From the NCBI GenBank assembly GCA_965231005.1, contig OZ246405.1:949657-1013656 (forward strand): 64,000 nucleotides of DNA, read 5' to 3'. Both the position numbers and the translations under genes were made by a program. This document shows positions 328 through 30,245 of the stretch, one piece after another (within the stretch, counting starts at the first letter, position 1; each line of letters starts with the position of its first letter). The notes below the pieces were generated by a model, which saw only the letters and a list, made by a program, of their open reading frames with translations, searched no databases and was not told the DNA's origin. The stretch comes from an uncultured Gammaproteobacteria bacterium. GTDB lineage: Bacteria > Patescibacteriota > Patescibacteriia > Magasanikbacterales > UBA922.

Positions 328-330
328 AAA

Positions 331-363
331 AATCGACCCGCCACAGCGCAATGCTGGGCGGGT
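331..363 (-). terminator. GC hairpin (GACCCGCC/GGCGGGTC) with T-run on minus strand; terminator for the lipoprotein gene, bidirectional
   Basis: 8-bp GC stem, 12-nt loop, followed on minus strand by ATTTTTTTATTTC. Confidence 0.6.
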
Positions 364-393
364 CTTCCTCTCTTACACGTCTGTTGATTCATC

Positions 394-1182
394 TCACCAG
401 CTGGCTCGACGATGGCAGCCGATCTTCTGCAACTCTTCCTTGGTCAGACCATGCTTCGGCATTTTCGGCTTTCTGAGCAGCTTGCACAATCGATTCGATC
501 TGATGACTCTGCTTCCGCCGCCGGCCTTGAGCAAGTAGTCGTACTCAAACCTAATCCCCAGGTTGTATGCCTTTGCCAGGTCAGCAACCTTTGGACCTTC
601 AAAGTCCGCTGGCATCTTGTGCAGCTTCTGCGGCACGGCCTTCTTGAAGAAGTCCACGTAGTCTGCAAGCAGTTCGGCGTAGAAGTACCGTTTTCCTCGA
701 AGCATGAGATCTGTCTTCGTGTACTTGACCAGCTCTGCAATGGCTGCGCTGTAGATGATGATCATCTGCTTCCGACCCTTCTTGATCTCGGCAAGGGTGG
801 GTTGACCTCTGCGCGGGTATGTCCTTTTGAACCAGGACCGCAGGCCTGGATGATCACGCTTTCTCCACAAGGCCTTTTCCAGCCTCTCTACACAATGGAC
901 GAGGCGGTCTGGATTCATTTTCAGGAGACTGTCGAGCACATGCTCTTGCGGAGAAAACTGCTCGAACGTACCCCAAGTCTCACCTTTGCCAACGCGCGTG
1001 TAGGCAAAGCGCTCCTGAAAGCACATGGTCACATCTCTCATCTGGGTTGCGTAGTCAGCCTTGTCACGACTGGTCAGGTACTTTTCGTCATACGGGTCGT
1101 ATTTGACGGGCTTCTGAGGCTGAGACCCACCACACCCACACATGAGTGAGATGATGAGGCAGAGTGAAATTCGAAAGAGCAT
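394..1182 (-). CDS. lipoprotein of unknown function inside a GC-rich island
   Basis: ORF 394..1251 trimmed to M at 1182 (MLFRISLCLIISLMCGCGG: signal peptide + lipobox LMCGC); GGGGG SD 6 nt upstream; ~55% GC vs ~33% surroundings. Confidence 0.55.
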   Translation of the reverse strand: MLFRISLCLIISLMCGCGGSQPQKPVKYDPYDEKYLTSRDKADYATQMRDVTMCFQERFAYTRVGKGETWGTFEQFSPQEHVLDSLLKMNPDRLVHCVERLEKALWRKRDHPGLRSWFKRTYPRRGQPTLAEIKKGRKQMIIIYSAAIAELVKYTKTDLMLRGKRYFYAELLADYVDFFKKAVPQKLHKMPADFEGPKVADLAKAYNLGIRFEYDYLLKAGGGSRVIRSNRLCKLLRKPKMPKHGLTKEELQKIGCHRRASW

Positions 1183-1360
1183 GATGTCCCCCTTTTGCTG
1201 TTGTCGTTGGGCCCATTCACAGGTTGTGAAATGGATATCTAACACTATCATAGTAAAAAGACAATGTCAAGATGTGTATTGTTTTGGCAAAAATATAGGA
1301 TTTTTTTTTATATTTTGGTATAATGTATACATACTCATAGTCCCCTATGAACATTTTTGT

Positions 1361-1915: not shown

Positions 1916-4495
1916 TTGTTTATGTTACTTTTCCAGTTTGCTGTAAATCCACAAACAAGCCAAACATTCTCGACCAATGGAGATCAAGCTCTTTTTTTGT
2001 TGCTTCTGGGTTGGTCACTTGTTGCCGTAGGTATTGGAGTTGCATTCATTGTCCGTGCAATTCTCCGTTCACAGTCACAGGCATCAAAAGCATTTCACAG
2101 AGTTGTCTTGCAAATTCTTGTGCCAAAAGAAAGAAAATCTGAAGGACAAGGCGGACAAGTAGGTCAAGAAGATAGACTTGAGATGATTAAAGAGGAAATT
2201 GGTATTACAGAGACCTTTTTCTCAAGTATTGCAGGACTTCGCGCACAACGAGGCTTTTCACGATGGCTTCATGGAAGAACAGACCATTTTTCTTTTGAAA
2301 TTGTCGTCCAAAACCAACAAATCTATTTTTATGTTGACATCCCAAAGAAGATGGCACAATTTTTTGAACAACAAATACATGCACAATTTCCTTATGCACA
2401 AATTGAGGAAATGACAGATTATAATATTTTTTCAGAACAAAGTGCAGTGATTGGTGCTTACATGACAAGTACAAAGCGAGATGAATTCCCATTCAAGACA
2501 TATAAAACAATGGAATCTGATCCACTGTCTCCTGTGCTCAATGCCCTAGCAAAAATAAATCAACCTGGAGATACAGCTGCAGTTCAATTTGTTCTTCGTT
2601 CTTCACATGCAAAATGGAGGAGAAAAGGTGTTAGCCTTGTGCGAGATGTGAAAAAAGGAAAGAAGTTTGAAAAAGTGGCTGATGACAATTTTTTCACAAA
2701 ATTCATGTCTGCTGCCAGTGATCTTCTTAAAGATGCAGCAGCATCAAAAAAGAATGATTTGTCAGATCCAAAAAAGCAATATCAACTATCACCAATGGAA
2801 GAAGAAATGCTTAAGGGTATTGAGCAAAAGCTTAGTAAGGGTGGCATTGATATTACAACAAGAATTTTGAGTGTTTCAAATAATGATGCAACAGCGCAAC
2901 TTAACCTAGATAACCTTGTAAACGCATTTAACCAATACAATTTTTATAGATATGGAAATAGTTTTAAGGCAGTTGTCCCTCGAAATCAAACACGCCTTAT
3001 TCAAAATTTTATATATAGAGCCTTTGATCATAAAAGAAACTTTGTCGTAAATACAGAGGAAATGTCCTCGCTGTGGCACCTGCCGCTCCATTCAACAGAA
3101 GCACCAAATATTAAATGGCTCTCTGGAAGAACTTCTCCCCCACCTGCAAATCTACCAAAAGAAGGTCTTCATCTTGGATATGTGAAGTATCGAGGAACAA
3201 AGACAGAAGTGTATTTAAAAGAGGCAGATCGTCGAAGACACTTATATATTATTGGAAAATCTGGAAGTGGAAAATCAGTATTTATTTCTAATCTTGCAAT
3301 TCAAGATATAAAAGCTGGCCATGGAATTGGTGTTGTTGATCCACATGGAGATTTGGTCGAAGATATCCTTGCGCACATTCCAAAAGAGCGTGCTGATGAT
3401 GTTATTGTGTTTAATCCATCTGATATGGATAGACCAATAGGATTAAACATGCTTGAGGCAAAAACAGAAGATCAAAAAGACTTTGCTGTTCAAGAAATGA
3501 TATCTATTTTCTATAAGCTCTTTCCACCTGAGATGATTGGTCCAATGTTTGAGCACAATATGCGAAATGTGATGCTAACACTTATGGCTGATTTGGATAA
3601 TCCAGGAACAATTATTGATATTCCACGAATGTTTACAGACGATGACTATGTAAAAGTTTATTTGAAAAAGCTAGAAGATCCTGTTGTACGCGCGTTCTGG
3701 GAAAAAGAAATGGCAAAAACAAGTGACTTTCATAAATCAGAAATGCTTGGTTACCTTGTCTCAAAAGTTGGACGTTTTGTTGGAAATGAAATGATGAGAA
3801 ATATTATGGGACAACAAAAATCAGGATTTGATTTCAGAGAAATCATGGACAATAAAAAGATCCTTCTTATTAATCTTGCAAAAGGAAAGACTGGTGAGGT
3901 GAACGCAAAACTCTTAGGACTTATTGTTGTTGCAAAATTACAAATGGCAGCAATGGGAAGAGCTGACATGGCTGAAAAGGATAGACATGATTTCTATCTT
4001 TATATTGATGAGTTCCAAAACTTTATAACAGACTCAATTTCCACAATTCTTTCTGAGGCAAGAAAATATAGACTTGACCTTATTATTGCTCACCAGTATA
4101 TGGGACAGCTTACTGATGACAAAGGAAAAAGTGATGTTCGTGATGCTGTGCTTGGAAATGTGGGAACCATGTGTGTCGGACGAATTGGTCCAGATGATGC
4201 TGAAGTACTTGCAAAAGAATTTGCACCAGTATTTGGCTCATATGATCTTCTTAATCCCCCACCATTCTCCTGGTATACAAAAATGCTTATAGATGGAAAA
4301 GCTGGAAAACCATTTAATGTTGCATCTTATCCCCTTGTTGAAGGTAATACTGAAATAGCAAACGCAATTAAAGAACTGTCTCGGCTGAAATATGGAAGAG
4401 ATAGAAGTATTGTTGAAACAGAGATACTCGACCGAACTAAACTTGGATCGGCAGAAGCACAGGGCGATACAGGAGCTGCAGAAGCATCATTATAA
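1916..4495 (+). CDS. VirB4/TraC/TrbE-like type IV secretion/conjugation ATPase (AAA-like, FtsK/HerA fold)
   Basis: N-terminal TM; Walker A 'YIIGKSGSGKS' at ~aa 445; Walker B 'LYIDEFQNF'; 'EARKYRLDLIIAHQYMGQL' motif; ~400-aa N-domain before Walker A fits VirB4 rather than VirD4. Confidence 0.6.
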   Translation: MFMLLFQFAVNPQTSQTFSTNGDQALFLLLLGWSLVAVGIGVAFIVRAILRSQSQASKAFHRVVLQILVPKERKSEGQGGQVGQEDRLEMIKEEIGITETFFSSIAGLRAQRGFSRWLHGRTDHFSFEIVVQNQQIYFYVDIPKKMAQFFEQQIHAQFPYAQIEEMTDYNIFSEQSAVIGAYMTSTKRDEFPFKTYKTMESDPLSPVLNALAKINQPGDTAAVQFVLRSSHAKWRRKGVSLVRDVKKGKKFEKVADDNFFTKFMSAASDLLKDAAASKKNDLSDPKKQYQLSPMEEEMLKGIEQKLSKGGIDITTRILSVSNNDATAQLNLDNLVNAFNQYNFYRYGNSFKAVVPRNQTRLIQNFIYRAFDHKRNFVVNTEEMSSLWHLPLHSTEAPNIKWLSGRTSPPPANLPKEGLHLGYVKYRGTKTEVYLKEADRRRHLYIIGKSGSGKSVFISNLAIQDIKAGHGIGVVDPHGDLVEDILAHIPKERADDVIVFNPSDMDRPIGLNMLEAKTEDQKDFAVQEMISIFYKLFPPEMIGPMFEHNMRNVMLTLMADLDNPGTIIDIPRMFTDDDYVKVYLKKLEDPVVRAFWEKEMAKTSDFHKSEMLGYLVSKVGRFVGNEMMRNIMGQQKSGFDFREIMDNKKILLINLAKGKTGEVNAKLLGLIVVAKLQMAAMGRADMAEKDRHDFYLYIDEFQNFITDSISTILSEARKYRLDLIIAHQYMGQLTDDKGKSDVRDAVLGNVGTMCVGRIGPDDAEVLAKEFAPVFGSYDLLNPPPFSWYTKMLIDGKAGKPFNVASYPLVEGNTEIANAIKELSRLKYGRDRSIVETEILDRTKLGSAEAQGDTGAAEASL

Positions 4496-13714: not shown

Positions 13715-13730
13715 AACAAAGGAGACATTC

Positions 13731-13763
13731 CCGACGACGGCCCTGCACGTACATCGTCGGGGC
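13731..13763. other. GC hairpin CCCGACGA/TCGTCGGG closing the island
   Basis: 8-bp perfect stem, 17-nt loop, no clear T-run. Confidence 0.35.
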
Positions 13764-17597: not shown

Positions 17598-19640
17598 TTA
17601 CTTTACTTTTTTAGATGTAGCTCCCACAAAAAGTTTATTTCCATATTCTGAGAACCATGGCACAACAAATCTGAGCATGACGCGTGTGATGGTAATTGCA
17701 GAGAACATACTAAGCAAAATTCCAATAAACAATGTCACAGCAAATCCTTTTACAAAGCTAGAACCAAACCCAATAAGGATAATACATGTAATCAGTGTTG
17801 AAACATTTCCATCTCTAATTGATGACCATGCTCGTACAAATCCTTCTTCAACAGAAGCTTTCAAGCTCTTTCCATCGCGAAGTTCTTCTTTGAGTCGTTC
17901 AAAAATAAGCACATTTGCATCCACTGCCATACCAATAGAAAGGATAAATCCTGCAATTCCTGCGAGTGTAAGTGTCACACCAATAAGTTTGAAAATTGCA
18001 AGTGTAAGCGCAATATACACAGAAAGTGAAATAACAGAAAGCAACCCTGGCAAACGATAATAGAGCAACATGAAAATCATAACAAGTGCCACACCATAAA
18101 TTCCTGCTTTCAAGCTTTTTTCAAGAGATGCTTTTCCAAGAGTCGCACCAATTGCTTGTTGTGAAATAAGTTCAACAGGAACTGGCAATGCACCAGCATT
18201 CAAACGTTGTGAAAGAAGTCGTGCTTCTGCAAGATCAGAATCACCTGTGATAACGGCACGACCATCTCGAATGGCTGTTTGAACAGTTGGAATGCTAATA
18301 GGAGCTCCATCTAAGAAAATAGCAATTGGTTCTCCAATATGACGTTCAGTCAAATCAGCAAATAATTTTTTCCCTTCATCGTCAAATAGAAGCGATACTT
18401 GAATGGCACCACTATTTGGGTCAGTAACAACTTCTGCACGTTCGAGTTGTTTTCCAGAAAGACCAGTAGTCTTCCAAGGTTCAGCTGGTGGTAAAATATC
18501 TGTAGGGGTTTGTTTGTCAAATGTAATCGCAAATATTTCAAATTCACTTGTTTGATCTGGCTTTTTGTAGATAATATGATATCCAAACTGTGTTTCTACT
18601 GGACCGACAATTTCACCAAATTTTGCATCAAATACTGCTTTTTCAAACTGAGGAACCATTGCGCCTCTCCCAAATGATCCAAGATCACCTCCTGTTTGAT
18701 CAGCACCAGTTTCTGTAGAATGTTCTCTTGCCAATGCAGCAAAATTTGTAGCATTTGCTTTTGTAAATATTTCCTTTGCTTTTTCAAATGCTTCTTCTTT
18801 TGTATATTTTGGATTATCACAACTTTGTGCACCAAGATAACAAATAAGAATATGACTAGCAGAGACATAGCTATCAGTTTTTTCAGCAATCCCTCTCTTC
18901 AATATTGCGTAACTGTCTCCCACATCAAGTACTGCTTGTGATATTGCTCCTTCTTCATTAGTAGTTGCCCATTCATAAAACTCAGAATTTTTTATAGGTG
19001 AAACCCATCCAAGAAGACCAGCATTATTTCTAGTTACAGCATCCTCAGAAAATTCGGTTGCAACTGTTGCAAAAGAATCACCTTTTTTCAATTTTTGTAA
19101 GGCATTGTTTGCGCGTTTTTTTACATCGTCATTAAAATCTTTGATGCTTTTTTCTTCCTCTTTTGTTAATTCCCTTGGTGGTTCATTATTTTGTTCTTTA
19201 AATTCCAAAATTGGTGTTTCACCAATCATATTAATTGCTTCATTCACATCTGAAACACCAGGAAGTTCCACAATAATACGATAATCATCACCAACTTTTG
19301 TTGTTTGAACATTTGGCTCACCAATTCCTAATCCATTTACACGACGCTCAATAACATCACGTCCACCTTCTACTGCGGCACCTCGCTCGTTACTTGCAAT
19401 ATTAGTAACGTCTGCTTGGTAGACCAAATGAGCACCACCTTGTAGGTCTAATCCCAATGAGAACTCTTTTTCTGGGAGCAGTGGAATGCCTACGTGTGCA
19501 ACACTTTCAATTTTGCTGAGAACTTTATTTGCAACATGTGGTGCATTATATGAACTTGCTACAAGCAATAATGCAAAAATACCAAAAATACCCCAACGGA
19601 TCTTGGAGCGAATTTGAGCTTGTGTTTTCTTATGAGCCAT
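17598..19640 (-). CDS. secD: protein translocase subunit SecD carrying tandem parvulin-type PPIase-like domains in the periplasmic head
   Basis: 'LGLDLQGG', 'RIIVELPGV', C-terminal SecD TM core; aa ~165-360 contain two PpiC-like repeats ('SASHILI...GGDLGSFGRGAMVPQFEKAVF...GPVETQFGYHII'). Confidence 0.8.
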   Translation of the reverse strand: MAHKKTQAQIRSKIRWGIFGIFALLLVASSYNAPHVANKVLSKIESVAHVGIPLLPEKEFSLGLDLQGGAHLVYQADVTNIASNERGAAVEGGRDVIERRVNGLGIGEPNVQTTKVGDDYRIIVELPGVSDVNEAINMIGETPILEFKEQNNEPPRELTKEEEKSIKDFNDDVKKRANNALQKLKKGDSFATVATEFSEDAVTRNNAGLLGWVSPIKNSEFYEWATTNEEGAISQAVLDVGDSYAILKRGIAEKTDSYVSASHILICYLGAQSCDNPKYTKEEAFEKAKEIFTKANATNFAALAREHSTETGADQTGGDLGSFGRGAMVPQFEKAVFDAKFGEIVGPVETQFGYHIIYKKPDQTSEFEIFAITFDKQTPTDILPPAEPWKTTGLSGKQLERAEVVTDPNSGAIQVSLLFDDEGKKLFADLTERHIGEPIAIFLDGAPISIPTVQTAIRDGRAVITGDSDLAEARLLSQRLNAGALPVPVELISQQAIGATLGKASLEKSLKAGIYGVALVMIFMLLYYRLPGLLSVISLSVYIALTLAIFKLIGVTLTLAGIAGFILSIGMAVDANVLIFERLKEELRDGKSLKASVEEGFVRAWSSIRDGNVSTLITCIILIGFGSSFVKGFAVTLFIGILLSMFSAITITRVMLRFVVPWFSEYGNKLFVGATSKKVK

Positions 19641-19720: not shown

Positions 19721-22513
19721 CTATTTCCCATGGCATTTCTTGTACTTTTTTCCACTTCCACAAGGACATGGATCATTTCTTCCAATCTTCTCCCCTGCCT
19801 CATTGCGCTCCTTCTTTTTGATGTGTGCACCTTGTTCACTCATAGTCTTCTTTGCCCCCTCAAGCGTCATCTTGTCAGAAGCCATAACTGTTGGTGCAAG
19901 TTGTAGGCCAATACCAACTTTAAAGAATGAATAGACAACTTCTTTTTGAATATTTGTAAGTAATTGATTGAACATATAAAAACTTTCCTTTTTGTATTCA
20001 ACCAATGGATCGCGTTGTCCATAACCACGAAGTCCAATTCCAGTTCGAAGATAATTCAATGATACAAGATGCTCAACCCACAATGCATCAATTGCTCTAA
20101 GCATGATTGATGTTTCAAATGCTGCAAGCAATCCATCAACATCTTGATCTGGCTCTGCATGTGATTTTACATGTGCTGCAATATTTTCATACTCATTTTT
20201 TGCCTTATCCATTAAGAACGAAACAATTGCTTCTCGAGCTTTTACATCATCAAGTTTTCTATCTCCATCTTTTCTCAAATGTAAGAAAGTTTCTCTTTCT
20301 TCATTTGTAAATGGAAATATTGTTTTCATGGTCTCGTAGATTTCTTTCATATTCCACTCTTTGTCTGTTGCTTGATCTACTTCTTCAATAACTTGTGGAT
20401 TTGTATGATAACTTACAACAAACTCAATTTCACTCTGAATCATCTCCATTATCATATCTGTTGCAGCTGATAAACTTTCCTTTGTCTTTTCATCATCTTT
20501 TGATCCTGCAATTTCCAAAATTGCACGACGTTTTTCATAAATAACTTCTCTGTGTCTATTTAACACATCATCGTAACTCAACAAATGTTTTCTTGTATCA
20601 AAATGCATTGATTCAACTTTTTTCTGCGCATTCTCAAGCATCTTTGTAATCATCTTTTGTTCAATTGGCATGTCATCTGGAACGTTCAGACGTGTCATAA
20701 CTGTTTTCAACCTATCTCCTGCAAAAATACGCATGAGTTCATCGTCTGTTGAAACAAAGAATTGTGTTTCACCTTTATCTCCTTGTCGAGCAGCTCGACC
20801 ACGAAGCTGATTATCAATACGACGTGATTCATGTCGTTCTGTTCCAAGAACAAATAATCCACCGGCGTCAAGCACTTGCTTTTCTACCTCTTTATCAATT
20901 GGACTTCCACCAAGTTTAATATCAACACCACGTCCTGCCATATTTGTTGCAAGAGTGATTGCGCCAGGGCGACCTGCCTGTGCAACAATTTCTCCTTCTC
21001 GTTCATGGTTCTTCGCATTCAATGCTTCATGGTGAATTCCTTGTGCAGTCAAATATTCACTAAGCATTTCATTTTTTTCAACAGAAATTGTACCAACCAA
21101 AATTGGCTGATTCTTTTCTTGACATTCTTTAATTTTCGCAACAACTGCTTTAAATTTTGCTTCTTCTGATTTATATATTCTATCTGGATTATCTATACGA
21201 GCGTCAGGTTTATTTGTTGGAATGACCAATACATCTAACCCATAGATTTTGAAAAACTCTTCTTTTTCTGTTTCAGCAGTACCTGTCATTCCAGACAATT
21301 TTGTATACATGCGGAAAAGATTTTGAAATGTAATCGTTGCAAGTGTTCTACTTTCTCGTTGAATATCAACACCTTCTTTTGCTTCAATTGCTTGGTGCAA
21401 TCCTTCTGAATATCGGCGACCTGGCATTTTTCTTCCTGTGAATTCATCAATAATAACCACTTCATTCTGATCAACAACATAATCCTTATCACGCTTAAAT
21501 AGAACTTCTGCGCGAAGTGCTTGTTCAATATGATGGACAAGACGAATTCCACCTTCAACATAAATATTCTCAACACCAAGCCATCCTTCAAATCGTGAAA
21601 TTCCTTCTTCTGTAAGCGTTGCAGATTTCATTTTCTCATCAACATTGTAATCATCATTTTCTTTTAACTGTTTAACCAACCGTGCAAATTGATAGTATTG
21701 ATCTGCTGCTTCTTCTGCTGGCGCAGAAATAATAAGTGGTGTTCGAGATTCATCAATCAAAATAGAATCAACTTCATCGATGATTGCATAATGCATTTCA
21801 CTTCCGTGCCGCATAACCATATCATCAACCGTCTGGACCATGTTGTCACGAAGATAGTCAAAACCAAACTCATTGTTTGTTCCGTATGTAATATCACACT
21901 GATACACCTCTTGTCGTGCTACTGGACGAAGGTATTCATCTTCAACTTTAAAACTTCCTGTACTATCTCGCTCTTCGTCTGTGTCACCACCTTCTTCCCC
22001 ACCCTTAAATGATGCATCATACACAAAACTAACACGCTGGTTTTGAACAATACCAACAGTCAATCCGAGAAAATCATAAATCTGACTCATCCAAACAGCA
22101 TCACGTTTTGCAAGATAGTCATTAACAGTAATAACATGAACACCTTTTCCTTCAAGTGCATTTAAATACACTGGAAGTGTTGCCACAAGTGTTTTACCCT
22201 CACCAGTTCTCATTTCTGCAATGATTCCTTTGTGAAGTGCAATTCCACCAATAAGTTGAACATCATAATGTCTCATGTTCATAAGACGACGACCTGTTTC
22301 TCGCACAACAGCAAAGGCCTCTGGAAGAATATCGTCCAGTGTTTTTCCATTTTTTAATTGTTCTTTAAATTCTGCCGTTTTTCCTTTTAGTTGATCATCT
22401 GTCAATCCTTTCATCTTTTCTTCCAATGCATTGATTGCATCAACAATTGGCTGAAAGGTTTTCATCTTTTTTTTGTTTTGATCACCAAGGAATTTTTCTA
22501 AGAATTTTGCCAT
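19721..22513 (-). CDS. secA: preprotein translocase ATPase SecA
   Basis: DEAD motor motifs, 'LAGRGVDI', C-terminal Zn finger 'CPCGSGKKYKKCHG'. Confidence 0.9.
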   Translation of the reverse strand: MAKFLEKFLGDQNKKKMKTFQPIVDAINALEEKMKGLTDDQLKGKTAEFKEQLKNGKTLDDILPEAFAVVRETGRRLMNMRHYDVQLIGGIALHKGIIAEMRTGEGKTLVATLPVYLNALEGKGVHVITVNDYLAKRDAVWMSQIYDFLGLTVGIVQNQRVSFVYDASFKGGEEGGDTDEERDSTGSFKVEDEYLRPVARQEVYQCDITYGTNNEFGFDYLRDNMVQTVDDMVMRHGSEMHYAIIDEVDSILIDESRTPLIISAPAEEAADQYYQFARLVKQLKENDDYNVDEKMKSATLTEEGISRFEGWLGVENIYVEGGIRLVHHIEQALRAEVLFKRDKDYVVDQNEVVIIDEFTGRKMPGRRYSEGLHQAIEAKEGVDIQRESRTLATITFQNLFRMYTKLSGMTGTAETEKEEFFKIYGLDVLVIPTNKPDARIDNPDRIYKSEEAKFKAVVAKIKECQEKNQPILVGTISVEKNEMLSEYLTAQGIHHEALNAKNHEREGEIVAQAGRPGAITLATNMAGRGVDIKLGGSPIDKEVEKQVLDAGGLFVLGTERHESRRIDNQLRGRAARQGDKGETQFFVSTDDELMRIFAGDRLKTVMTRLNVPDDMPIEQKMITKMLENAQKKVESMHFDTRKHLLSYDDVLNRHREVIYEKRRAILEIAGSKDDEKTKESLSAATDMIMEMIQSEIEFVVSYHTNPQVIEEVDQATDKEWNMKEIYETMKTIFPFTNEERETFLHLRKDGDRKLDDVKAREAIVSFLMDKAKNEYENIAAHVKSHAEPDQDVDGLLAAFETSIMLRAIDALWVEHLVSLNYLRTGIGLRGYGQRDPLVEYKKESFYMFNQLLTNIQKEVVYSFFKVGIGLQLAPTVMASDKMTLEGAKKTMSEQGAHIKKKERNEAGEKIGRNDPCPCGSGKKYKKCHGK

Positions 22514-22665
22514 AGAATAGGTAAATTATGCCTCGCGATTATATCATAAATATCTTTTGCTGTCTAGCATTGACTTTTTGCTTATTCTTGCTAAAATCCA
22601 AATAGATATCTGGTTTTTTGTAATCGGAAATCACCACATCTCGCTCACAGCCAAAGGAGACCTCA

Positions 22666-23145
22666 ATGTCCAAGACCATCCGAATTGCGATCGCATCTGA
22701 CCACGCTGGCGTGGGAGAGAAAGCTGCTGTGATCCGTGCCCTTGGAATCACTCCAAAAACCATCACGCGAGGACCTGACTACGATGTCAAAGACTTTGGT
22801 CCATCAGAACAAGAGGGGCGCGTAGACTACCCGGCATTCGCAGCCAAGGTCGCAAGAGCAGTTGCGGACGGCACGGTTGACCTGGGCATCCTGATCTGCG
22901 GCACTGGCATTGGCATGTCTATCGCAGCCAACAAGTTTCCTGGCATTCGGGCAGCATTGGCTCACAACGCTACGACTGCCAGACTGGCCCGTGAGCACAA
23001 CAACGCCAACGTACTGTGTCTCGGAGCACGCATGCTCGGCAGGGACCTCATCATCGAGTGCGTCCGTGCTTGGCTCGAGGCCGAGTTTGAGGAACGGCAC
23101 CAACACCGGCTGGACATCATCGCTTCGATCGAGGCTGAAATGTAG
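22666..23145 (+). CDS. rpiB: ribose-5-phosphate isomerase B (RpiB/LacAB family), GC-rich actinobacterial-like
   Basis: 'IAIASDHAG', 'GILICGTGIGMSIAANK', 'ALAREHNNANVLCLG', 'RHQHRLDI'; AAAGGAG SD; ~60% GC. Confidence 0.8.
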   Translation: MSKTIRIAIASDHAGVGEKAAVIRALGITPKTITRGPDYDVKDFGPSEQEGRVDYPAFAAKVARAVADGTVDLGILICGTGIGMSIAANKFPGIRAALAHNATTARLAREHNNANVLCLGARMLGRDLIIECVRAWLEAEFEERHQHRLDIIASIEAEM

Positions 23146-23170
23146 GCCCAGATCTGAACACAAGGAGACA

Positions 23171-23230
23171 AAAAAACCGTGACGAACTTCGGCTTTCACG
23201 CTGAACGTACTCACGGTTTTGTCTTTTTTA
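23171..23230 (+). terminator. GC hairpin terminator after rpiB (ACCGTGA...TCACGGT + T-run)
   Basis: aaaaaaACCGTGA...TCACGGttttgtcttttttaa. Confidence 0.5.
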
Positions 23231-23317
23231 ATTAACACCACCAGCCTCAGGAGCGGAAAATGTATCACTGTTTAGAAATTTTTCATTCATAACATCTTCA
23301 AAGATCCTTTGGATAAA

Positions 23318-23569
23318 CTAATCGCTTCCTGCCTCTATCTGAGAAAGAAATTCTTCAACAGTAAGTTGTTGACCATCCTGCGCTGCTTGTTTTTCCAAAC
23401 GCTCGAATGTTCCAAGAAGAATGGACTGAACATGCACTCGATCAATATTTGCACCTTTTTTCCCTATACCATCAATAATAGTATCTTCAACCTGTCGCAA
23501 CTTTGACTGAAGCTCTGTCACATCTTCTGGACCTGCAACCTTTGGTTGTAGCACTTCTGGATTTGGCAT
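23318..23569 (-). CDS. hypothetical acidic protein, 1 nt downstream of hpf
   Basis: 83-aa ORF co-directional with hpf. Confidence 0.4.
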   Translation of the reverse strand: MPNPEVLQPKVAGPEDVTELQSKLRQVEDTIIDGIGKKGANIDRVHVQSILLGTFERLEKQAAQDGQQLTVEEFLSQIEAGSD

Positions 23570-23570
23570 A

Positions 23571-23918
23571 TTATTCCTCTTGATATTCTTTTGAACTTCT
23601 AATTACTTCTCTATCCTTTGCTCGCATCTTTCCTTTCATTTTTTCAAGCTCAACTTTAAAATGGTCTTTAACTTTATCAATTGCTTTGTACAAATCCTCT
23701 GCTTCTTTTACAACACGCAAATTTTTCTTTGGAACATGCAAATTTGCTTCTGCATAAAATATTTTTCCTTTTTGATGATGGCTTGATTCCATTCCAATTT
23801 CAACATCTGCTTTGATAATATTGTCAAAGTACTTATCTAGCATCCCGATCTTTTCTTCTGCATGTGCTCGCAATGCAGGTGTGAGGTCTGTTCCTTTTGC
23901 ACGAATGTTTATTAACAT
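23571..23918 (-). CDS. hpf: ribosome hibernation promoting factor (RaiA/HPF short form)
   Basis: 'MLINIRAKGTDLTPALRAHAEEKIGMLDKYFD...ADVEI', S30EA family pattern. Confidence 0.75.
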   Translation of the reverse strand: MLINIRAKGTDLTPALRAHAEEKIGMLDKYFDNIIKADVEIGMESSHHQKGKIFYAEANLHVPKKNLRVVKEAEDLYKAIDKVKDHFKVELEKMKGKMRAKDREVIRSSKEYQEE

Positions 23919-23945
23919 AGATTATTAGTTATTAGATATTAGTTA

Positions 23946-24908
23946 CTAAATAATTTGTATTTCTTCTTGCAATGCAAGTTCAAATTTATCATACACGGTT
24001 TCCTTGATTTCCTCAATTAAACTGAGGACATCCTGTGCAGATGCATTTCCTGTGTTTATAATAAAATTTCCATGAACATCACTTACTTGCGCAGCACCTA
24101 CTTTCTTTCCTTTTAATCCTGCTTGCTCGACCAACCATCCTGCTGAAATAATATTTTTTTCCAAAAAATTTTTTACTTTTTCATCTAACACATCAAAATG
24201 TTTTTTAAGAAGCTCTTCTTTTTCTTTATCTAATTCTACATTTTTAAAAATACAACCTGTTGATGCATATCCTTTTGGCTGTGTTTCATTTCTGTATTGT
24301 AAAACATTCAATGCCTTTTTGGCACTCTCTTTGTTTTCAGCTTTTGCCAATGCAAGGATAACACGCAATACAAATCCACCTCCTTTTTTAAAAATACTAT
24401 GACGATATTCAAACTGACATTCTTCGTTTGAATATGTTATAACTTCTCCATCTTTGTATACTTCTACCGATGAAACATTGTCTTTCATTTCAAAGCCAGT
24501 TGCACCAGCATTTCCTCGGACAGCACCACCAATCGTCCCTGGCACACCAACACCCCATTCAAATCCGGTTAGTCCTGCTTTCATACTTTCTTGTGCAACA
24601 GTAACAGTAGATGCTCCAGCACTTGCAGTAAGCGTTGTACCATCAATGTGAATATCATTATCTTTTATTTGAATAACGACTCCGTCAAAACCAGCATCAG
24701 AAACAAGCATATTGCTTCCACCGCCAAGGATCATATAGTCAATCCCCTTTCCATCTAGATATTTGAAAAGTTCAACAAGATTATCTACTGTCTCAACAAT
24801 AATAAAATAGGTGGCTGGTCCACCAATCTTAAACGTAGTATGTTTTGACATTGGTTCATTGAGACGAACCTTTCCAAATTCTTTTATTGTCTTATAGATC
24901 TCATCCAT
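23946..24908 (-). CDS. murB: UDP-N-acetylenolpyruvoylglucosamine reductase
   Basis: 'KHTTFKIGGPATYF', FAD-binding 'ILGGGSNMLVSD', C-terminal MurB domain; start trimmed to MDEIYK. Confidence 0.8.
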   Translation of the reverse strand: MDEIYKTIKEFGKVRLNEPMSKHTTFKIGGPATYFIIVETVDNLVELFKYLDGKGIDYMILGGGSNMLVSDAGFDGVVIQIKDNDIHIDGTTLTASAGASTVTVAQESMKAGLTGFEWGVGVPGTIGGAVRGNAGATGFEMKDNVSSVEVYKDGEVITYSNEECQFEYRHSIFKKGGGFVLRVILALAKAENKESAKKALNVLQYRNETQPKGYASTGCIFKNVELDKEKEELLKKHFDVLDEKVKNFLEKNIISAGWLVEQAGLKGKKVGAAQVSDVHGNFIINTGNASAQDVLSLIEEIKETVYDKFELALQEEIQII

Positions 24909-24951
24909 ATCTCTTCTATCATAGCTCTTTTTTGAGTCATCTGCAAGTTTT

Positions 24952-26190
24952 CTATGACTTCTTGAGCCTCCGCAGGCTCCGCTGATATTTGATAGCAAAT
25001 CGATGCGCTTCATCACGGACACGAACAAAAATATCTTCATGTTTTTTAATAAATGCAAGAACACCTGATTTTGTTGTTCCAAAAATAAACTCATTCTTCT
25101 TTCTTGCAGGTCCTTTTGCAATTCCAATGACTGGAATGGACAATCCAAACGATGCAACAACCTTCTTGGCAGTATTTACCTGTGGTTTTCCTCCATCAAC
25201 AAGAATAATGTCTGGATAGATCCATTCTTGATGCTTTAATCGTCTTTCCAAGACTTCAGCAAGCGCACCAACATCACTCTGTCCTTTGAATGTTTTGATT
25301 TTAAACTTTCTGTATCTATCTTTTCTTGGAACATCATGTTCAAACGCAACCATGCTTCCCACAACTCCTGAAGATCCAAGATTTGAAATATCATATCCTT
25401 CAATCCGAACTGCCCGTTTATAATGCAGTTCTTTTTCAAAAAAAGATTTATTAATAAGTGCAATATCTTGGATGCGTTGCAATGCAGCAATTTGATTTCT
25501 CCGCTTTGCAGCATCTTCAAATTGTTCTTGTTTTGAAAATGCTTTCATTTCCTTTTCAAATGTTTTTACAACATCTTTTTTTCTTCCTTGCAAAAATAAT
25601 GTCAATGGACGAATAATTTTTTGTTTGTATCGGGTTGGAGATATTTCTTTTTTAAATACTCCTTCACACTGCTTCATTTGATAATACATGCATGATTTTT
25701 GTCCTGGCTTGCACGTACAGAAACCAAAAAGTTTGCGAAGAATTCTCAATGTTGCTTTTGCATTGAGACCAGGAAATGGACCAAATAGTTTTGCAAACGT
25801 TTGTTGTCTTTCTTTTGTTGATAATTGTCGAAGTTGATGAGAGCGGATTGTTTCTATACGCGGATATTCATCTTTTGTAATTGCAATATAATTCCAACTT
25901 TTATTATCTTTTCCAAGAACATTATATTTTGGCTCATATTTCTTAATATAAATTGATTCCAAAATAATTGCTTCAAGAACAGAATCTGTTTTCTTAATTT
26001 TTATATCATGAACTTCGTGAATCATTTCTTCAATTGGTCGAGAAGAAGTTTTTCCTGAAAAATACGAACGAACTCTATTTCGAAGCGATGTTGCTTTTCC
26101 TACATATACCAGTGACTTTTTTCTATCATAAAAAAGATAGATCCCTGGAGAATCTGGAAAAGCTTTTATTTTTGCTTTGAGTGATATCAT
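24952..26190 (-). CDS. uvrC: excinuclease ABC subunit C, short form lacking the C-terminal (HhH)2 domain
   Basis: GIY-YIG 'GIYLFYDRKKSLVYVGKATSLRNRVRSYF', UVR domain 'FEDAAKRRNQIAALQ', endonuclease domain ending 'RDEAHRFAIKYQRS'; stop 43 nt before murB. Confidence 0.8.
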   Translation of the reverse strand: MISLKAKIKAFPDSPGIYLFYDRKKSLVYVGKATSLRNRVRSYFSGKTSSRPIEEMIHEVHDIKIKKTDSVLEAIILESIYIKKYEPKYNVLGKDNKSWNYIAITKDEYPRIETIRSHQLRQLSTKERQQTFAKLFGPFPGLNAKATLRILRKLFGFCTCKPGQKSCMYYQMKQCEGVFKKEISPTRYKQKIIRPLTLFLQGRKKDVVKTFEKEMKAFSKQEQFEDAAKRRNQIAALQRIQDIALINKSFFEKELHYKRAVRIEGYDISNLGSSGVVGSMVAFEHDVPRKDRYRKFKIKTFKGQSDVGALAEVLERRLKHQEWIYPDIILVDGGKPQVNTAKKVVASFGLSIPVIGIAKGPARKKNEFIFGTTKSGVLAFIKKHEDIFVRVRDEAHRFAIKYQRSLRRLKKS

Positions 26191-26401
26191 ATACACTTCA
26201 TAGTACATTACTTTAGTACAATTATCCACATATGCTTTGCGAATATAAAAAACTGTGTTAGGATAATTATATGAAACATATTGCAAGAAAAAACATGTAT
26301 TACTACTATAGCTTCCCTGCTAGGTAGTTTTCTTGTGCATAGAGAAATGAAGGCTCCCTAGTAGGGCGCTATTTTTTTATGACATTACTAATTATTACTA
26401 T

Positions 26402-27229
26402 ATGAATTCAATTACAGAACCAAAAGAAATACTTCAAATCCTTGATCTAGATCATCCTGGTGCATCTGACAAGGCTTACAGAAAACGACGAGAACATATT
26501 GCTGAGCAAGCACGAACATTTCGCAATGATCCAGATAATATTCCTCTCATTACATACACAGATGAAGAACATGGTGTTTGGAGTACTGTAAACAAGGTGC
26601 TCAATAAACTCCATCCAGATCGGGCCTGTTCAATGTACATAACAGCAAGAACAAAACTTGATATTTCTGATAGTGTTATTCCTCAAATGAGAGATCTGAG
26701 TCAAAACATTGAACAATTTCATCAATTTCGTCTTGGACCAATAGAAGGACTTGTTGATAGTAGATCATTTCTTTCTCAGCTTGGGAAAAAAAGAATGTTG
26801 TGTACACAGTACATCCGACATAAATCACGACCAACATTTACACCTGAACCAGACATTATTCATGAGTTCATAGGTCATGCACCAATGTTTACGATTAAAG
26901 AAATTGTTGAATTTTCTGAGTTGATTGGGAATGCAGCAGCAACAGCAACCAATGAGCAACTCATTCAACTAGAACGGCTGTACTGGTTTACACTTGAATA
27001 TGGATTAATTGAAGAACAGGGAAAGCGAAAAGCCTTTGGAGCTGGACTTCTTGCAGGAATTGAAGACATGAATAATGCATTTAAAATAAACGCACATATT
27101 AAACCATTTCACGTTGCTGATGTTATTCAAACGGACTACAACTACTCATTTACACAGCCAGTATTCTTTATTCTTCCTTCATTTTCTTTTCTCAGAGATG
27201 AAACAAAAAAATTGATTGATTCATTTTAG
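26402..27229 (+). CDS. biopterin-dependent aromatic amino-acid (phenylalanine) 4-hydroxylase
   Basis: 'PDIIHEFIGHAPMF', 'LERLYWFTLEYGLIEEQGKRKAFGAGLLAGIED' (Fe-binding 2-His-1-Glu core). Confidence 0.75.
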   Translation: MNSITEPKEILQILDLDHPGASDKAYRKRREHIAEQARTFRNDPDNIPLITYTDEEHGVWSTVNKVLNKLHPDRACSMYITARTKLDISDSVIPQMRDLSQNIEQFHQFRLGPIEGLVDSRSFLSQLGKKRMLCTQYIRHKSRPTFTPEPDIIHEFIGHAPMFTIKEIVEFSELIGNAAATATNEQLIQLERLYWFTLEYGLIEEQGKRKAFGAGLLAGIEDMNNAFKINAHIKPFHVADVIQTDYNYSFTQPVFFILPSFSFLRDETKKLIDSF

Positions 27230-27408
27230 TTTTCCACACAAATTCTTGCGAATATAATACTATTGCTGTACAGTACTTATTGTATGAATCACATTGTACG
27301 CACAACAACTACAACTACAAAGACTTTCCAACCGGAGAGGTAGTTGTGTTGTAACAAACAATCAATCAACCACCTCTGCCGAGGTGGTTTTGCATTTGGG
27401 GGGACATA

Positions 27409-27606
27409 ATGGTATATCCGGGTACAGACATCAAAATCCAAAAGGGAGATGCAGTCCATCTCGAGGGTGTCGGAGAAGGGACGATTACCTACGTTGCAAG
27501 ACCAACAGACCACATCCTGGTCACAGTCGAGGTGGGAAGCTACCACAACCTCGATGAGGGGCGGATGAGTGGACTCCGGTTCGTGCGTCGCGGAGCCGCT
27601 GCATAG
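27409..27606 (+). CDS. hypothetical 65-aa protein in GC-rich cassette
   Basis: GGGGGG SD 5 nt before ATG; two leader hairpins upstream (27316-27365, 27371-27392); own terminator downstream. Confidence 0.35.
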   Translation: MVYPGTDIKIQKGDAVHLEGVGEGTITYVARPTDHILVTVEVGSYHNLDEGRMSGLRFVRRGAAA

Positions 27607-27637
27607 CACAAGTGAGGGAGAGAACAACAAGGGGGAA

Positions 27638-27679
27638 AGGGATCGAGCTTCTGGCTGGTCCCTCTTCTTTTTTATTTTA
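27638..27679 (+). terminator. intrinsic terminator of the 27.4-kb cassette (GGGATCG...TGGTCCC + TCTTCTTTTTTATTTT)
   Basis: GC stem with long T-run on plus strand. Confidence 0.5.
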
Positions 27680-30245
27680 AATATTTTTTCAAGTAATTTC
27701 CTGTATGACTATATCCTTTCAGGGCAACTTGCTCTGGTGTTCCAGCAACAAGGACTTCCCCACCTTTGTCACCACCTTCTGGACCAAGATCAATAATCCA
27801 GTCAGCACATTTAATCAAATCAAGATTGTGTTCAATAACAAGTACTGTATTTCCCTGTGACACAAGTTTTTGTAGAACCTCAACAAGTTTTCGTACATCA
27901 TCATAATGCAATCCTGTTGTGGGCTCATCAAGAAGATATAATGTTTTTGTTGTATTTCTTTTTGCAAGTTCACGACTAAGTTTAATACGTTGTGCCTCTC
28001 CACCAGAAAGTGTTGTTGCAGATTGACCAAGGGTTAAATAATCCAGTCCAACCTCATTTAACATTTTTAATTTATCATGAATCGCAGGAATATCTTTAAA
28101 AAATACTTCTGCTTCTTCTATAGTCATATCAAGCACGTCTGCAATTGATTTTCCATTGAAATGAACTTGCAAGGTTTCACGGTCAAAACGCTTTCCCTTA
28201 CAAACATCACAAAGAATTTCAACACTTGGCAAAAAGTGCATTTCAATTTGAAGATTTCCTCTTCCTTCACAATGTTCACACCTACCACCAGGTCGGTTAA
28301 AACTAAATCGTCCTTTTTTGTATCCACGAATACGTGCTTCTGGCGTTGACGCAAATAAATCTCGAATAACATCAAATGCTTTTGTATATGTTGCAGGATT
28401 ACTTCGTGGTGTGCGACCAATTGGTTTCTGATCAATACGAATGATTTTATCAATATATTCTGTCCCTAAAATCTCACGATGCTTACCAACAATTTTATCT
28501 GTACGATGCAATCTATTTGAAACAGTACGATACAAAATTTTATTCATGAGTGTTGATTTTCCAGATCCAGAAACACCTGTTAAACATACCAATCTTCTGA
28601 GTGGAATGTTCACATTAATTTTTTTCAAATTGTGCTGCTCAGCACCTTTTATTTTTATGAGTGGTGTTGTGCGATCAACTTTTCTTCTTTTTTCTGGAAG
28701 TGGAATTTTTGATTCATTACGAAGATATTTTCCTGTTAATGATTTTTTGGGATCACCATACTGTTTTGCTTTTGTTTTTTCTTTTGATAATGAAAGTAAT
28801 GTTGAACGAGGACCAGAAAAAACAATATCTCCCCCGTGCTTTCCTGCACGCGGTCCTAAGTCAACAACCCAATCACTCATAAGAATTGTTTCTTCATCAT
28901 GTTCTACAATAATGATGGTATTCCCAACATCACAAAGATTTCTTAGTGTTGAAACAAGTTGAGCATTGTCACGCTGGTGAAGTCCAATTGTTGGTTCATC
29001 TAACACATACAGTGCACCAACGAGTTTTGTCCCAACCTGTGATGCAAGACGAATGCGTTGTGCTTCTCCACCAGACAATGTTCCTGCCTTTCTATTGAGT
29101 GTTAAATAGTGCAATCCAACATCACTCATAAATTGCAATCTATTTTGCACTTCTTTTAACACTGTTCCTGCAATTTCTTTTTGTGAGGCATCAAGTGCAT
29201 CATCTATTTGCAAAAAGTAATCAATCGCATCATTGATTGTTAACGATGTAATTTCATAAATATTTTTGTCTCCAACCCTAACATGCAGTGCATCTTCATT
29301 TAATCGTTTTCCTTCACATTGACTACAAACTTCTTCACTAAATAATTCTTTTGTTCCCAAACCATAACAGTGTTGACACTGTCCATATGGGCTATTAAAA
29401 CTAAACAACCGCGGTTCAATTTCTGGAAAACTATATCCATCATTTGGACAAGAATATTCTGTGCTATATATTTGTTCTGTTTGATCTTGAAAATGAATAG
29501 CACATAATCCGTTTGATAATTCCACTGCAGATTCTACTGCTTCTGCAAGCCGACGTGTATCTTCACTTTTTTTTGTAAATGTTGCACCTGCAAGTGGAAT
29601 CCGATCAATAACAATTTCAATGGTGTGTTTTTTATGACGTGACAATTTCACTCGACTGCGTAGACTTTTTATTTTTCCATCAATCCGAACTTCTAAATAT
29701 CCTGCATTGTACATATCGTAGAGCATTTGATAATACTCCCCTTTTCTTCCACGAACAACTGGGGAAAAAATAATAAGTTCATTCTCTGCTTTTTTTGCAA
29801 CTGTTTTTTTCTTTGTTGAAGAAATAATTCGTGTTGTCATTTCTTCTACTGTCATCTTTCTAATTTCAACACCATCAATTGGACAATAGGGTTGTCCTAC
29901 ACGAGCAAATAACACACGCAAATAATCATAAATCTCTGTAATCGTTGCAACAGTCGAACGAGGGTTTGCACTGTGCGCTTTTTGATCAATAGAAATTGCA
30001 GGCGAAAGCCCTTCAATCTCATCAACATCTGGCTTTTGCATCCCACCTAAAAACTGTCGTGCATATGCAGAAAGACTTTCAACATATCGACGCTGTCCTT
30101 CGGCAAAAATTGTATCAAACGCAAGAGAGGACTTTCCTGATCCAGACAGTCCTGTAAATGTAATCATCTTGTTCCGAGGGAGTTCAAGATCAATATTTTT
30201 CAAATTGTGCTCTCGAGCACCTTTTATAATGATATTATCCTGCAT
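27672..30245 (-). CDS. uvrA: excinuclease ABC subunit A
   Basis: two ABC ATPase modules, Zn fingers 'CEHCEGRG', 'CQHCYGLG', 'LSGGEAQRI' x2. Confidence 0.9.
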   Translation of the reverse strand: MQDNIIIKGAREHNLKNIDLELPRNKMITFTGLSGSGKSSLAFDTIFAEGQRRYVESLSAYARQFLGGMQKPDVDEIEGLSPAISIDQKAHSANPRSTVATITEIYDYLRVLFARVGQPYCPIDGVEIRKMTVEEMTTRIISSTKKKTVAKKAENELIIFSPVVRGRKGEYYQMLYDMYNAGYLEVRIDGKIKSLRSRVKLSRHKKHTIEIVIDRIPLAGATFTKKSEDTRRLAEAVESAVELSNGLCAIHFQDQTEQIYSTEYSCPNDGYSFPEIEPRLFSFNSPYGQCQHCYGLGTKELFSEEVCSQCEGKRLNEDALHVRVGDKNIYEITSLTINDAIDYFLQIDDALDASQKEIAGTVLKEVQNRLQFMSDVGLHYLTLNRKAGTLSGGEAQRIRLASQVGTKLVGALYVLDEPTIGLHQRDNAQLVSTLRNLCDVGNTIIIVEHDEETILMSDWVVDLGPRAGKHGGDIVFSGPRSTLLSLSKEKTKAKQYGDPKKSLTGKYLRNESKIPLPEKRRKVDRTTPLIKIKGAEQHNLKKINVNIPLRRLVCLTGVSGSGKSTLMNKILYRTVSNRLHRTDKIVGKHREILGTEYIDKIIRIDQKPIGRTPRSNPATYTKAFDVIRDLFASTPEARIRGYKKGRFSFNRPGGRCEHCEGRGNLQIEMHFLPSVEILCDVCKGKRFDRETLQVHFNGKSIADVLDMTIEEAEVFFKDIPAIHDKLKMLNEVGLDYLTLGQSATTLSGGEAQRIKLSRELAKRNTTKTLYLLDEPTTGLHYDDVRKLVEVLQKLVSQGNTVLVIEHNLDLIKCADWIIDLGPEGGDKGGEVLVAGTPEQVALKGYSHTGNYLKKYLK

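Follow-up and report, generated by a model that had tools for sequence, protein, structure and literature searches.

Bacteria of the candidate phyla radiation (CPR) are symbionts of very small size, most of them uncultured, and little is understood of how they acquire new functions. Genes can pass from host to epibiont in this group, for example to Saccharibacteria from their Actinobacteria hosts, and acquired metabolic genes are known from CPR genomes. In marine bacteria such as Prochlorococcus and Alteromonas, flexible genomic islands or islets occupy conserved loci where their cargo is replaced. Phage morons, attributed to Hendrix and co-workers around 2000, are reportedly autonomous units of a gene with promoter and terminator that have an atypical composition and lie between phage genes. 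Here, we analyzed a 64,000-nucleotide stretch (contig OZ246405.1, positions 949,657 to 1,013,656; the window) from a member of Candidatus Magasanikbacteria, in which four short GC-rich patches, a (330-1260), b (13075-13790), c (22630-23230) and d (27289-27690), interrupt an AT-rich backbone. With a probability that we put at roughly 55%, these patches are accessory one- or two-gene expression cassettes of a class found across Candidatus Magasanikbacteria. Lineage-wide, GC-rich units that are led by a Shine-Dalgarno (SD) sequence, end in their own terminators and mostly stand behind a candidate promoter occupy conserved slots, and they combine variable, fast-evolving cargo with conserved untranslated regions (UTRs). 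The cassettes are a variant of kinds already known, namely genomic islets, units that resemble morons, and genes transferred horizontally to CPR bacteria; the literature that we searched contained no description of GC-rich cassettes in CPR genomes.

Like morons, the cassettes are single-gene units with their own terminator and usually their own promoter, lie in sharp compositional contrast between adjacent genes and carry accessory cargo. Moron-type autonomy was found for c and d, whose promoters are supported by a motif scan, and for a, whose promoter was recognized by eye; b is without a clear promoter. Unlike morons, they sit in a bacterial chromosome amid secA, hpf, folD, dus and uvrA, have no PHROG match, possess host-like promoters with only the transcribed body GC-rich, and use slots that are kept across a phylum-level lineage. 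With flexible islands they share that one slot between core genes holds non-homologous genes in relatives, that the cargo is rich in envelope proteins and ORFans, and that exchange presumably proceeds by homologous recombination in the flanks. However, they measure 0.4-1.9 kb and hold one or two genes instead of spanning tens of kb, have neither tRNA gene nor integrase, include promoter, leader and terminator in their arms, and show an extreme, one-directional GC contrast. Integron cassettes and solitary attC clusters likewise consist of small, mostly ORFan open reading frames (ORFs), each with a 3' hairpin, and vary in cargo between strains, but here there is no IntI, no RYYYAAC...GTTRRRY boxes are found at the cassettes, and these are dispersed and mostly have their own candidate promoter. 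The parallel with host-to-epibiont transfer is that metabolic gap-fillers of non-CPR affinity sit in a reduced genome (RpiB in the window; in relatives also pyruvate kinase, SulP and an aminotransferase); the cassettes differ in that no donor or host was identified, RpiB is not actinobacterial, the cargo is mostly ORFan, and some cassettes are old and have kept their GC.

Composition, expression signals and conserved slots

The first-pass annotation of the window had pointed out the four GC-rich patches as self-contained gene-plus-signals units with a GC level and SD strength that the host genes lack. Their GC content is 0.52 (a), 0.53 (b), 0.55 (c) and 0.49 (d), with peaks of 0.53-0.60 (z = 5.2-7.2) against a backbone that averages 0.357 in 300-bp windows outside the patches (sd 0.034, maximum 0.453); the mean over the whole window is 37.2%. 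GC at third codon positions (GC3) reaches 0.58-0.76 in the patch ORFs, excepting the second ORF of b (0.40), versus 0.23 +/- 0.03 in the backbone. Their foreign composition extends to each of the three codon positions and to the amino acids used: averaged over 28 cassette genes, GC1/GC2/GC3 is 0.58/0.42/0.67 versus 0.50/0.35/0.23 in the backbone, FYMINK/GARP 0.23/0.27 versus 0.31/0.21, and K/(K+R) 0.41 versus 0.65. By published codon-position regressions, such values are about those of equilibrium genes in a genome of ~57% GC. Since GC1 and GC2 are not above the prediction from GC3, the cassettes lack the mark that an import usually shows as it decays towards AT.

The claim about SD strength is likewise confirmed. 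Every cassette ORF of the window has a GGAGG or GGGGG SD, versus any SD-like motif in 3/50 backbone genes, and the start context GGACAT(C/A)ATG is common to a, b and d. Many backbone genes have a -10-like TATAAT/TACAAT box directly 5' of the ATG, which suggests that leaderless or very short-leader mRNAs are widespread among them. Across 140 non-redundant related loci, the SD-motif frequency of backbone genes equals that of the in-gene control (16% each), and the GC-rich class reaches 61% versus 43% in its control. An anti-SD motif is often undetectable in the 16S rRNA of Parcubacteria (PMC9297842).

All parts that the first-pass annotation had listed are present: a lipoprotein gene on the minus strand with GGGGG SD and GC hairpin terminator in a; two small acidic ORFs, one of them Cys-rich, with GGAGG SDs and a closing CCCGACGA/TCGTCGGG hairpin in b; a genuine rpiB with its own terminator in c; and a 65-aa ORF with two leader hairpins, GGGGGG SD and its own terminator in d. 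Its description as self-contained units holds for SDs and hairpins throughout and for candidate promoters in a, c and d, and falls short for b, where none is convincing. As read from the sequence, three of the units (a, c, d) stand behind an AT-rich, host-type sigma-70 candidate promoter, often with the consensus -35 element TTGACA. In each of the four, a GC-rich transcribed body combines a structured leader and a strong SD with one or two small ORFs and a terminator made of a GC hairpin; where a candidate promoter was seen, the GC-rich segment runs from just past it to the terminator. In five of six window cassettes an SD-like purine box lies between stop codon and terminal hairpin, as it does in 12/28 cassettes overall (3.2 +/- 1.6 expected). 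We rejected this 3' AACAAGGAGA box as a special element, as in a, c and d it is the purine arm that pairs with the terminator U-tract. The cassettes are solitary, 4.5-12 kb apart, and share no DNA repeats. Pfam, NCBIfam and PHROGs gave no match for the cassette ORFans, and Rfam at gathering score reported only tRNA-Gln in the whole window.

For comparison we used related loci: 160 in similarity searches, 140 non-redundant ones in the SD count and 80 SecA-centered ones for the slots around secA. With one genome per species, the closest relatives of the window's SecA are all metagenome-assembled genomes (MAGs) of Candidatus Magasanikbacteria or Patescibacteria (55-82% identity), some of them mislabeled as uncultured Gammaproteobacteria, and a metagenome scan with SecA led to the same placement. 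The host had been guessed to be a CPR bacterium, correctly on this evidence. Locus L001 is the closest relative, with SecA 82% identical. In most of the 80 SecA-centered loci, short stretches exceed the background by 12 GC points or more, many of them directly up- or downstream of secA, and the gene order hpf-[slot]-secA-[slot]-secDF is kept. Between hpf and secA, slot lengths range from 70 to 2299 bp; this slot is often GC-rich and has a conserved back-to-back promoter pair. Among 1072 ORFs of at least 100 aa, 92 exceed the median GC3 of their locus by more than 0.10, in a tail that is continuous and extends rightward only.

The cassettes occupy a few intergenic slots between housekeeping genes (such as hpf-secA, secA-secD and folD-dus), which in relatives hold other GC-rich cargo or are empty. 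The cargo consists of gap-filling enzymes and a transporter together with fast-evolving ORFans, several of them lipoprotein, membrane-anchored or Zn-ribbon proteins; in the relatives we found pyruvate kinase, a SulP permease, a class-V aminotransferase, membrane-anchored proteins, Zn-ribbon mini-proteins and ORFans. The Zn-ribbon family (52-114 aa, CxxC..CxxCGH..CxCxxC..GRxLxG-COOH) is encoded about 150-450 bp upstream of secA, always on the opposite strand, in nine distinct genomes (L004, L005, L007, L009, L011, L014, L015, L029 and L156) whose SecA is in each case 66-72% identical to that of the window; its GC3 is 0.50-0.86. In the window and in L001, rpiB takes the place of the Zn-ribbon gene in the hpf-secA slot.

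Residence and turnover are seen in the pair L065/L072, whose backbone proteins are mostly 85-95% identical. A cassette shared by both upstream of secA has a synonymous divergence (dS) of 1.03, versus 0.84-1.5 in the backbone, and a nonsynonymous divergence (dN) of 0.34, versus 0.03-0.09 for most backbone genes. The 5' two-thirds of the gene are hyper-divergent, and its GC-rich 3' end and UTR are 82-88% identical, as is the backbone. In the slot downstream of secA, L065 and L072 have unrelated GC-rich ORFs of 224 and 172 aa, framed by a TTGAC promoter and a CGCCCC..GGGGCG hairpin that are both conserved. The folD-dus site of L001 measures 47 bp with one shared terminator, and cassette b is absent there. 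Searches with tblastn did not find a, b or the GC-rich module at 41.6 kb in the 160 related loci; with all island proteins as queries, only RpiB gave matches, in L001 and in contigs of free-living type that had been fetched for comparison. Accordingly, part of the units have long been resident, other slots were filled anew, and polymorphism is seen at one site or more, a pattern that recent serial import from one donor does not fit.

The four cassettes

Cassette a, on the minus strand, encodes a basic ORFan of 262 aa (394..1182; pI 9.8, GC3 0.67) that is as Lys-rich as the backbone proteins, with AAG making up 79% of the Lys codons. A signal peptide that ends in a lipobox cysteine (MLFRISLCLIISLMCG-C) marks the product as a putative lipoprotein. 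The start region GGGGGACATCATG (1192-1180) contains the GGGGG SD. A candidate promoter, TTGACA (1270-1265), 17 nt and TAGTGT (about 1247-1242), was seen by eye and is unlisted by the automatic scan. At the 3' end, a GC hairpin GACCCGCC..GGCGGGTC is followed by a T-run (335..364; 79-nt fold of -30.9 kcal/mol, z = -4.4), and the upstream purine box pairs with the U-tract to give an intrinsic terminator. Among 1.8 billion representatives, a single distant homolog, P0125, was found (27% identity, E = 1e-4), in which G16 and C17 are invariant (..VLFG-C). A search of 5.8 billion proteins and a full HMMER scan returned nothing beyond the protein itself and this one match, and a metagenome scan with the lipoprotein alignment found nothing. 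The P0125 gene lies on a short metagenomic contig, is 62% GC between flanks of 42% and 46%, and has a GGAGG SD and a purine box and hairpin 3' of its stop codon; the P0125 locus is a cassette of the same kind. AlphaFold2 models of the lipoprotein and of the d ORF had a pLDDT of ~45 and were unusable. A gene for a VirD4/TrwB-like coupling ATPase (1916-4495, plus strand) adjoins cassette a.

Cassette b lies on the plus strand, as does folD, and may be read through from that gene. Its first ORF (13171-13464, behind a GGAGG SD at 13161-13165) encodes an acidic protein of 97 aa (pI 4.7, GC3 0.76) for which no homolog was found in protein searches. The second (13481-13714, GGAGG SD at 13471-13475) encodes 77 aa (pI 4.6) with six Cys, a Cys-rich N-terminus and an acidic tail, and is the least certain of the gene calls because its GC3 is only 0.40. 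A purine box AACAAAGGAGA and the hairpin CCCGACGACGG..CATCGTCGGG (13715..13761) close the unit.

Cassette c diverges from secA. The two promoters stand back to back, TAGACA-17-TATAAT for secA (22566-22538, minus strand, 11/12 matches) and TTGACT-16-TAAAAT for rpiB (22570-22597, plus strand, 10/12 matches), and few promoter matches in the 15 kb scanned are stronger than this pair (22538..22597); the hpf-secA slots of relatives show a like arrangement in their sequences. An SD (AAGGAGA, 22654-22660) precedes rpiB (22666-23145, plus strand, 159 aa, GC3 0.62), and AAGGAGACAAAAAAA, a hairpin and UUUUGUCUUUUUU (23162..23229) form a terminator with an A-tract/U-tract extended stem (z = -4.0). The product is a full-length RpiB (PF02502, E = 1e-52) that passes TIGR01120 (150.8, cut-off 138.65) and NF004051 (178.6, cut-off 135). 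Assignment to the actinobacterial type was rejected, as the score with TIGR02133 (RPI_actino) was 144.0, below the cut-off of 168.2. Among the RpiB structures matched, the closest was 3HE8 (128 bits), which we take to be the Clostridium thermocellum RpiB, and the Mycobacterium tuberculosis structures 1USL, 2VVO and 2BES were the weakest (78-79 bits). RpiB enzymes of the Escherichia coli Cys66 type have their catalytic Cys in a G-T-G-I/V-G loop. The protein carries this Cys-type active-site motif as ICGTGIG, with LICGTGIGMSIAANK aligning to ICGTGLGISIAANK of 3HE8, and has an insertion of eight residues near residue 25 relative to 3HE8. The best match among 5.8 billion proteins was 59% identical, and named matches came from Myxococcales, Desulfuromonas, Acidobacteriota and similar groups; two top matches lie in rpmF-rpiB-nrdR-ribD neighborhoods of free-living-type bacteria, one on a contig of 66% GC. 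The RpiBs of the window and L001 share the slot and are only 49% identical, while the SecAs are 82% identical, and they were not recovered as sisters (3/100 bootstraps in a neighbor-joining tree of 60 sequences). RpiB looks imported and of a non-CPR type, neither actinobacterial nor recent. The first-pass annotation had suggested that rpiB would plug a pentose-phosphate gap.

Cassette d, also on the plus strand, has a promoter TTTCCA-16-TATAAT (27231-27258) and a leader with two hairpins, P1 (about 27303-27351) and the terminator-like P2 (27368-27389) followed by a U-run (z = -3.4 for the hairpins). The SD GGGGGG (27398-27403) precedes an ORF of 65 aa without a family match (27409..27606, GC1/GC2/GC3 0.67/0.42/0.58). 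The 3' end consists of purine boxes AGGGAGAGAACAACAAGGGGGAAA, the hairpin GGGATCGAGC..GGTCCC and a T-run (27615..27675). The leader (27283-27411) is 81% identical to L001 6568-6697 (minus strand) over ~130 nt, with both hairpins kept, SD and ATG in the same position and a similar terminator architecture; the ORF behind the L001 leader gave no BLASTP alignment with the d ORF. Cassette d is vertically shared and predates the split from L001. A covariance model of the leader scored 147 bits in the window and 153 bits in L001 and found one weak candidate, in L019 (315-453, 22 bits, E = 0.13), and we claim no wider family; the L019 candidate would add compensatory changes and has a small lipoprotein gene downstream. 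Rfam had no match at E <= 1 in 27200-27720. In the leader, an outer CACAAC/GUUGUG helix and the terminator-like hairpin AACCACCUC..GAGGUGGUU with its U-run stand directly before the G-rich SD. From these two sequences, the leader may be an attenuator or RNA switch. A biopterin-dependent aromatic amino-acid hydroxylase gene (26402-27229, plus strand) adjoins cassette d; this gene, uvrC and uvrA are absent from the matching L001 locus.

Origin and persistence of the cassettes

As accessory cassettes, the units would have begun with the entry of genes from outside donors of roughly 55-62% GC. They would then have persisted and been exchanged among Magasanikbacteria by homologous recombination through their promoter, leader and terminator flanks, possibly after uptake by natural transformation, which is plausible for CPR bacteria. 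Exchange of this kind would leave UTRs conserved while ORFs are replaced or hyper-diverged. A strong SD may be needed because a GC-rich, structured mRNA could not use the SD-independent or leaderless initiation of the AT-rich backbone. Composition and translation signals support a reading as foreign-looking accessory cassettes. For horizontal acquisition the picture is mixed: composition is atypical and presence patchy (b, a and the 41.6-kb module), but an outside affinity was seen for RpiB only, the ORFans have no homologs outside the lineage, and cassette d is vertically shared.

Several findings weigh against this explanation. No donor was found for any cassette, with one weak match for the lipoprotein and none for the first ORF of b, and there are no insertion scars in the form of attC boxes, cassette-specific direct repeats or shared repeats. 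The proposed exchange by homologous recombination draws on three locus pairs. Even between deeply diverged genomes, the Zn-ribbon genes keep their synteny and their high GC, and the cassette shared by L065 and L072 still has a GC3 of 0.64 and 0.66 despite a dS of about 1; a maintained GC agrees better with such resident cassettes than an import in decay does. In addition, neither the window nor the related loci contain a 16S rRNA 3' end from which the anti-SD could be read.

The main rival, with which the persistence data fit better, is an endemic class of native, vertically inherited Magasanikbacteria genes whose GC is actively maintained. Either selection would act on the structure or stability of the mRNA or on its SD-dependent translation, or gene conversion at recombination hot spots would be GC-biased; high GC would then say nothing about foreign origin. 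The fixed position and GC3 of the Zn-ribbon genes in nine genomes, the backbone-like dS and the backbone-like 3' conservation of the GC-rich L065/L072 cassette, the sharing of cassette d with L001, the combination of a Lys-rich lipoprotein with AAG codons, and the way in which GC-rich segments begin and end together with the transcripts, immediately past the -10 box and at the terminator, all speak for such a class. Nevertheless, we consider it doubtful. The closest RpiB relatives are on contigs of free-living type, at least one of them at 66% GC, and no sister relation was recovered between the RpiBs of the two Magasanikbacteria; L001 has nothing at the folD-dus site, and unrelated ORFs fill one slot of close relatives. 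Ribosomal-protein genes have the lowest GC3 (0.14-0.25), which makes translational selection for GC-ending codons unlikely, and a shift of GC3 from 0.23 to 0.7 by biased conversion would to our knowledge be unprecedented in bacteria. The first-pass annotation had favored repeated recent acquisition from one high-GC donor, such as the actinobacterial host of an epibiont. The organism is indeed a CPR bacterium, the GC3 values of a, the first ORF of b, c and d are mutually compatible (p = 0.07), and strong SDs are found throughout, with one start context in a, b and d. Such a history is nonetheless improbable, and for c and d it is already largely refuted. RpiB fails the actinobacterial equivalog TIGR02133, the M. 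tuberculosis enzyme is the most distant of the matched structures, and the best matches of the window's RpiB carry mixed labels at no more than 59% identity; the rpiB of the first-pass annotation is real, its actinobacterial type is not. GC3 values of 0.58-0.78 imply donors of roughly 55-63% GC, which lies below most actinobacteria, and GC3 is heterogeneous when all seven GC-rich ORFs of the window are compared (p = 8e-10). Recency is contradicted by cassette d, which with its conserved leader is older than the split from L001, and the same class occurs lineage-wide with other cargo. That annotation had also said that GC-rich homologs in related low-GC genomes would count against import. This was found in part: many relatives of low GC have GC-rich cassettes in these slots too, the Zn-ribbon family is GC-rich in nine genomes, and the lipoprotein homolog exceeds its 42-46% flanks.

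A mobile-element cargo, in the form of phage morons or prophage remnants, integron-type cassettes or miniature transposable units, would account for the moron-like architecture (a gene with terminator and usually promoter, of odd composition, between genes), for the small ORFan-rich cargo with 3' hairpins as in integron cassettes, and for the excess of 3' purine boxes, but it is very improbable. Ten cassette proteins had no PHROG match at E <= 0.01, and no relatives turned up on viral contigs or plasmids. The 64 kb contain no phage gene and, in a Pfam scan of the ~50 ORFs, no integrase, transposase or reverse transcriptase; the neighbors are housekeeping genes, no flanking or shared repeats were seen, and the purine boxes of a, c and d are accounted for by their pairing with the terminator U-tract. 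Candidate integron cassettes were rejected, as none of the eight attC R''/R' box pairs (RYYYAAC, GTTRRRY) in 64 kb falls in or within 50 bp of a cassette, no integrase is present and the cassettes are solitary. Cassette-specific direct repeats, in which the 5' SD region would match the 3' purine box, were discarded because the match within a cassette did not exceed that between different cassettes (p = 0.22), and so were transposable elements or miniature inverted-repeat elements, with no shared repeats and no target duplication at the b junction versus the empty L001 site. Hardly credible is an assembly or binning artefact that joined high-GC reads of another organism into a low-GC contig. 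Two independent contigs, both from run ERR2281800, end inside cassettes: L089 in b (13472), after covering the left junction and the first 405 bp, and L088 in d (27553). Such breaks could stem from reduced coverage where the DNA is GC-rich, or from differences between strains in these cassettes. However, contigs made by MEGAHIT and Logan from runs ERR2281800 and ERR2281801 are 99.99-100% identical to window 20402-31889, which takes in both junctions of c and d; L085, L086 (with one mismatch) and L087 span both junctions of c and/or d, so that the joins of these two are non-chimeric. Furthermore, the source contig is 1.23 Mb long, the same phenomenon occurs in dozens of unrelated MAGs and metagenome contigs, and AT-rich candidate promoters abut the GC-rich bodies.

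Together, the window and about 140 non-redundant related loci show that the accessory genes of one CPR lineage come in a recognizable packaging, a sequence signature with which the flexible gene pool of Magasanikbacteria genomes can be mapped. High GC alone neither proves recent transfer nor points to a host. Of most interest is that a single small genome has two regimes of translation and that high GC persists in it, which raises the questions whether an SD-dependent sub-regulon exists in an SD-less genome and whether local high GC can be maintained against a strong AT bias. As a tentative proposal that we would sooner doubt than believe, Magasanikbacteria may keep two compositional and translational gene classes in a ~1.2-Mb genome, an AT-rich, SD-less housekeeping core that often looks leaderless, and GC-rich, structured, SD-dependent mini-cistrons whose high GC is maintained. 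The mini-cistrons would have consensus promoters and fixed intergenic slots, with conserved UTRs around ORFs that are swapped or evolve very fast. If true, the GC-rich compartment would be a plug-in expression platform for envelope and host-interface proteins and for gap-filling enzymes, with high GC kept by RNA-level selection or GC-biased conversion at recombination hot spots rather than being the fading mark of import.

Further GC-rich units and backbone features

The 41.6-kb module (41580-43480, minus strand) contains two GC-rich ORFs of 240 and 194 aa, each with its own SD, whose GC3 (0.76 and 0.78) exceeds that of patches a-d. A consensus promoter TTGACA-17-TAGACT lies at about 43.49 kb, and one of three hairpins has a perfect 17-bp stem (about 42325-42365, z = -8.2). 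Neither ORF had a homolog in Pfam, PHROGs or NCBIfam, and the 194-aa ORF had no relatives in plasmids or viral contigs. Two further segments on the plus strand, 35230-35890 and 35900-36520, have a GC of ~0.50 without codon-position periodicity and are candidates for structured non-coding RNAs of about 500-600 nt. The second has a consensus promoter TTGACA-17-TATAAT (about 35907-35940) and an intrinsic terminator (36476-36510). For 35100-36650, Rfam returned only terminator-like sub-threshold matches, and the 160 related loci contain no DNA similar to these patches. The region 44400-45000 is moderately GC-enriched (0.43-0.45) between very AT-rich regions (0.28-0.30).

The window backbone consists of housekeeping genes, including secA, secDF, hpf, murB, uvrABC, folD, dus, dnaX, ribosomal-protein genes and rpoA. 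SecD (17598-19640, minus strand) has two stretches that match PPIC-type peptidyl-prolyl isomerases (rotamases), one at residues 253-357; they lie between the N-terminal P1 segment (residues 94-151) and the P1 head, an unusual fusion. Backbone intergenic regions contain arrays of 7-nt units (TAGTTAT, TAACTAG or TAGCTAA) at 23923-23948, 37864-37916, 38718-38884, 54391-54540, 57174-57291, 61300-61337, 61738-61783 and 63333-63469, often running up to a start codon. Their period of 7 nt places stop codons in all three frames. Such arrays may act in leaders, as signals for translation or as binding sites for a protein, and a similar array is visible in the hpf-secA slot of L014.

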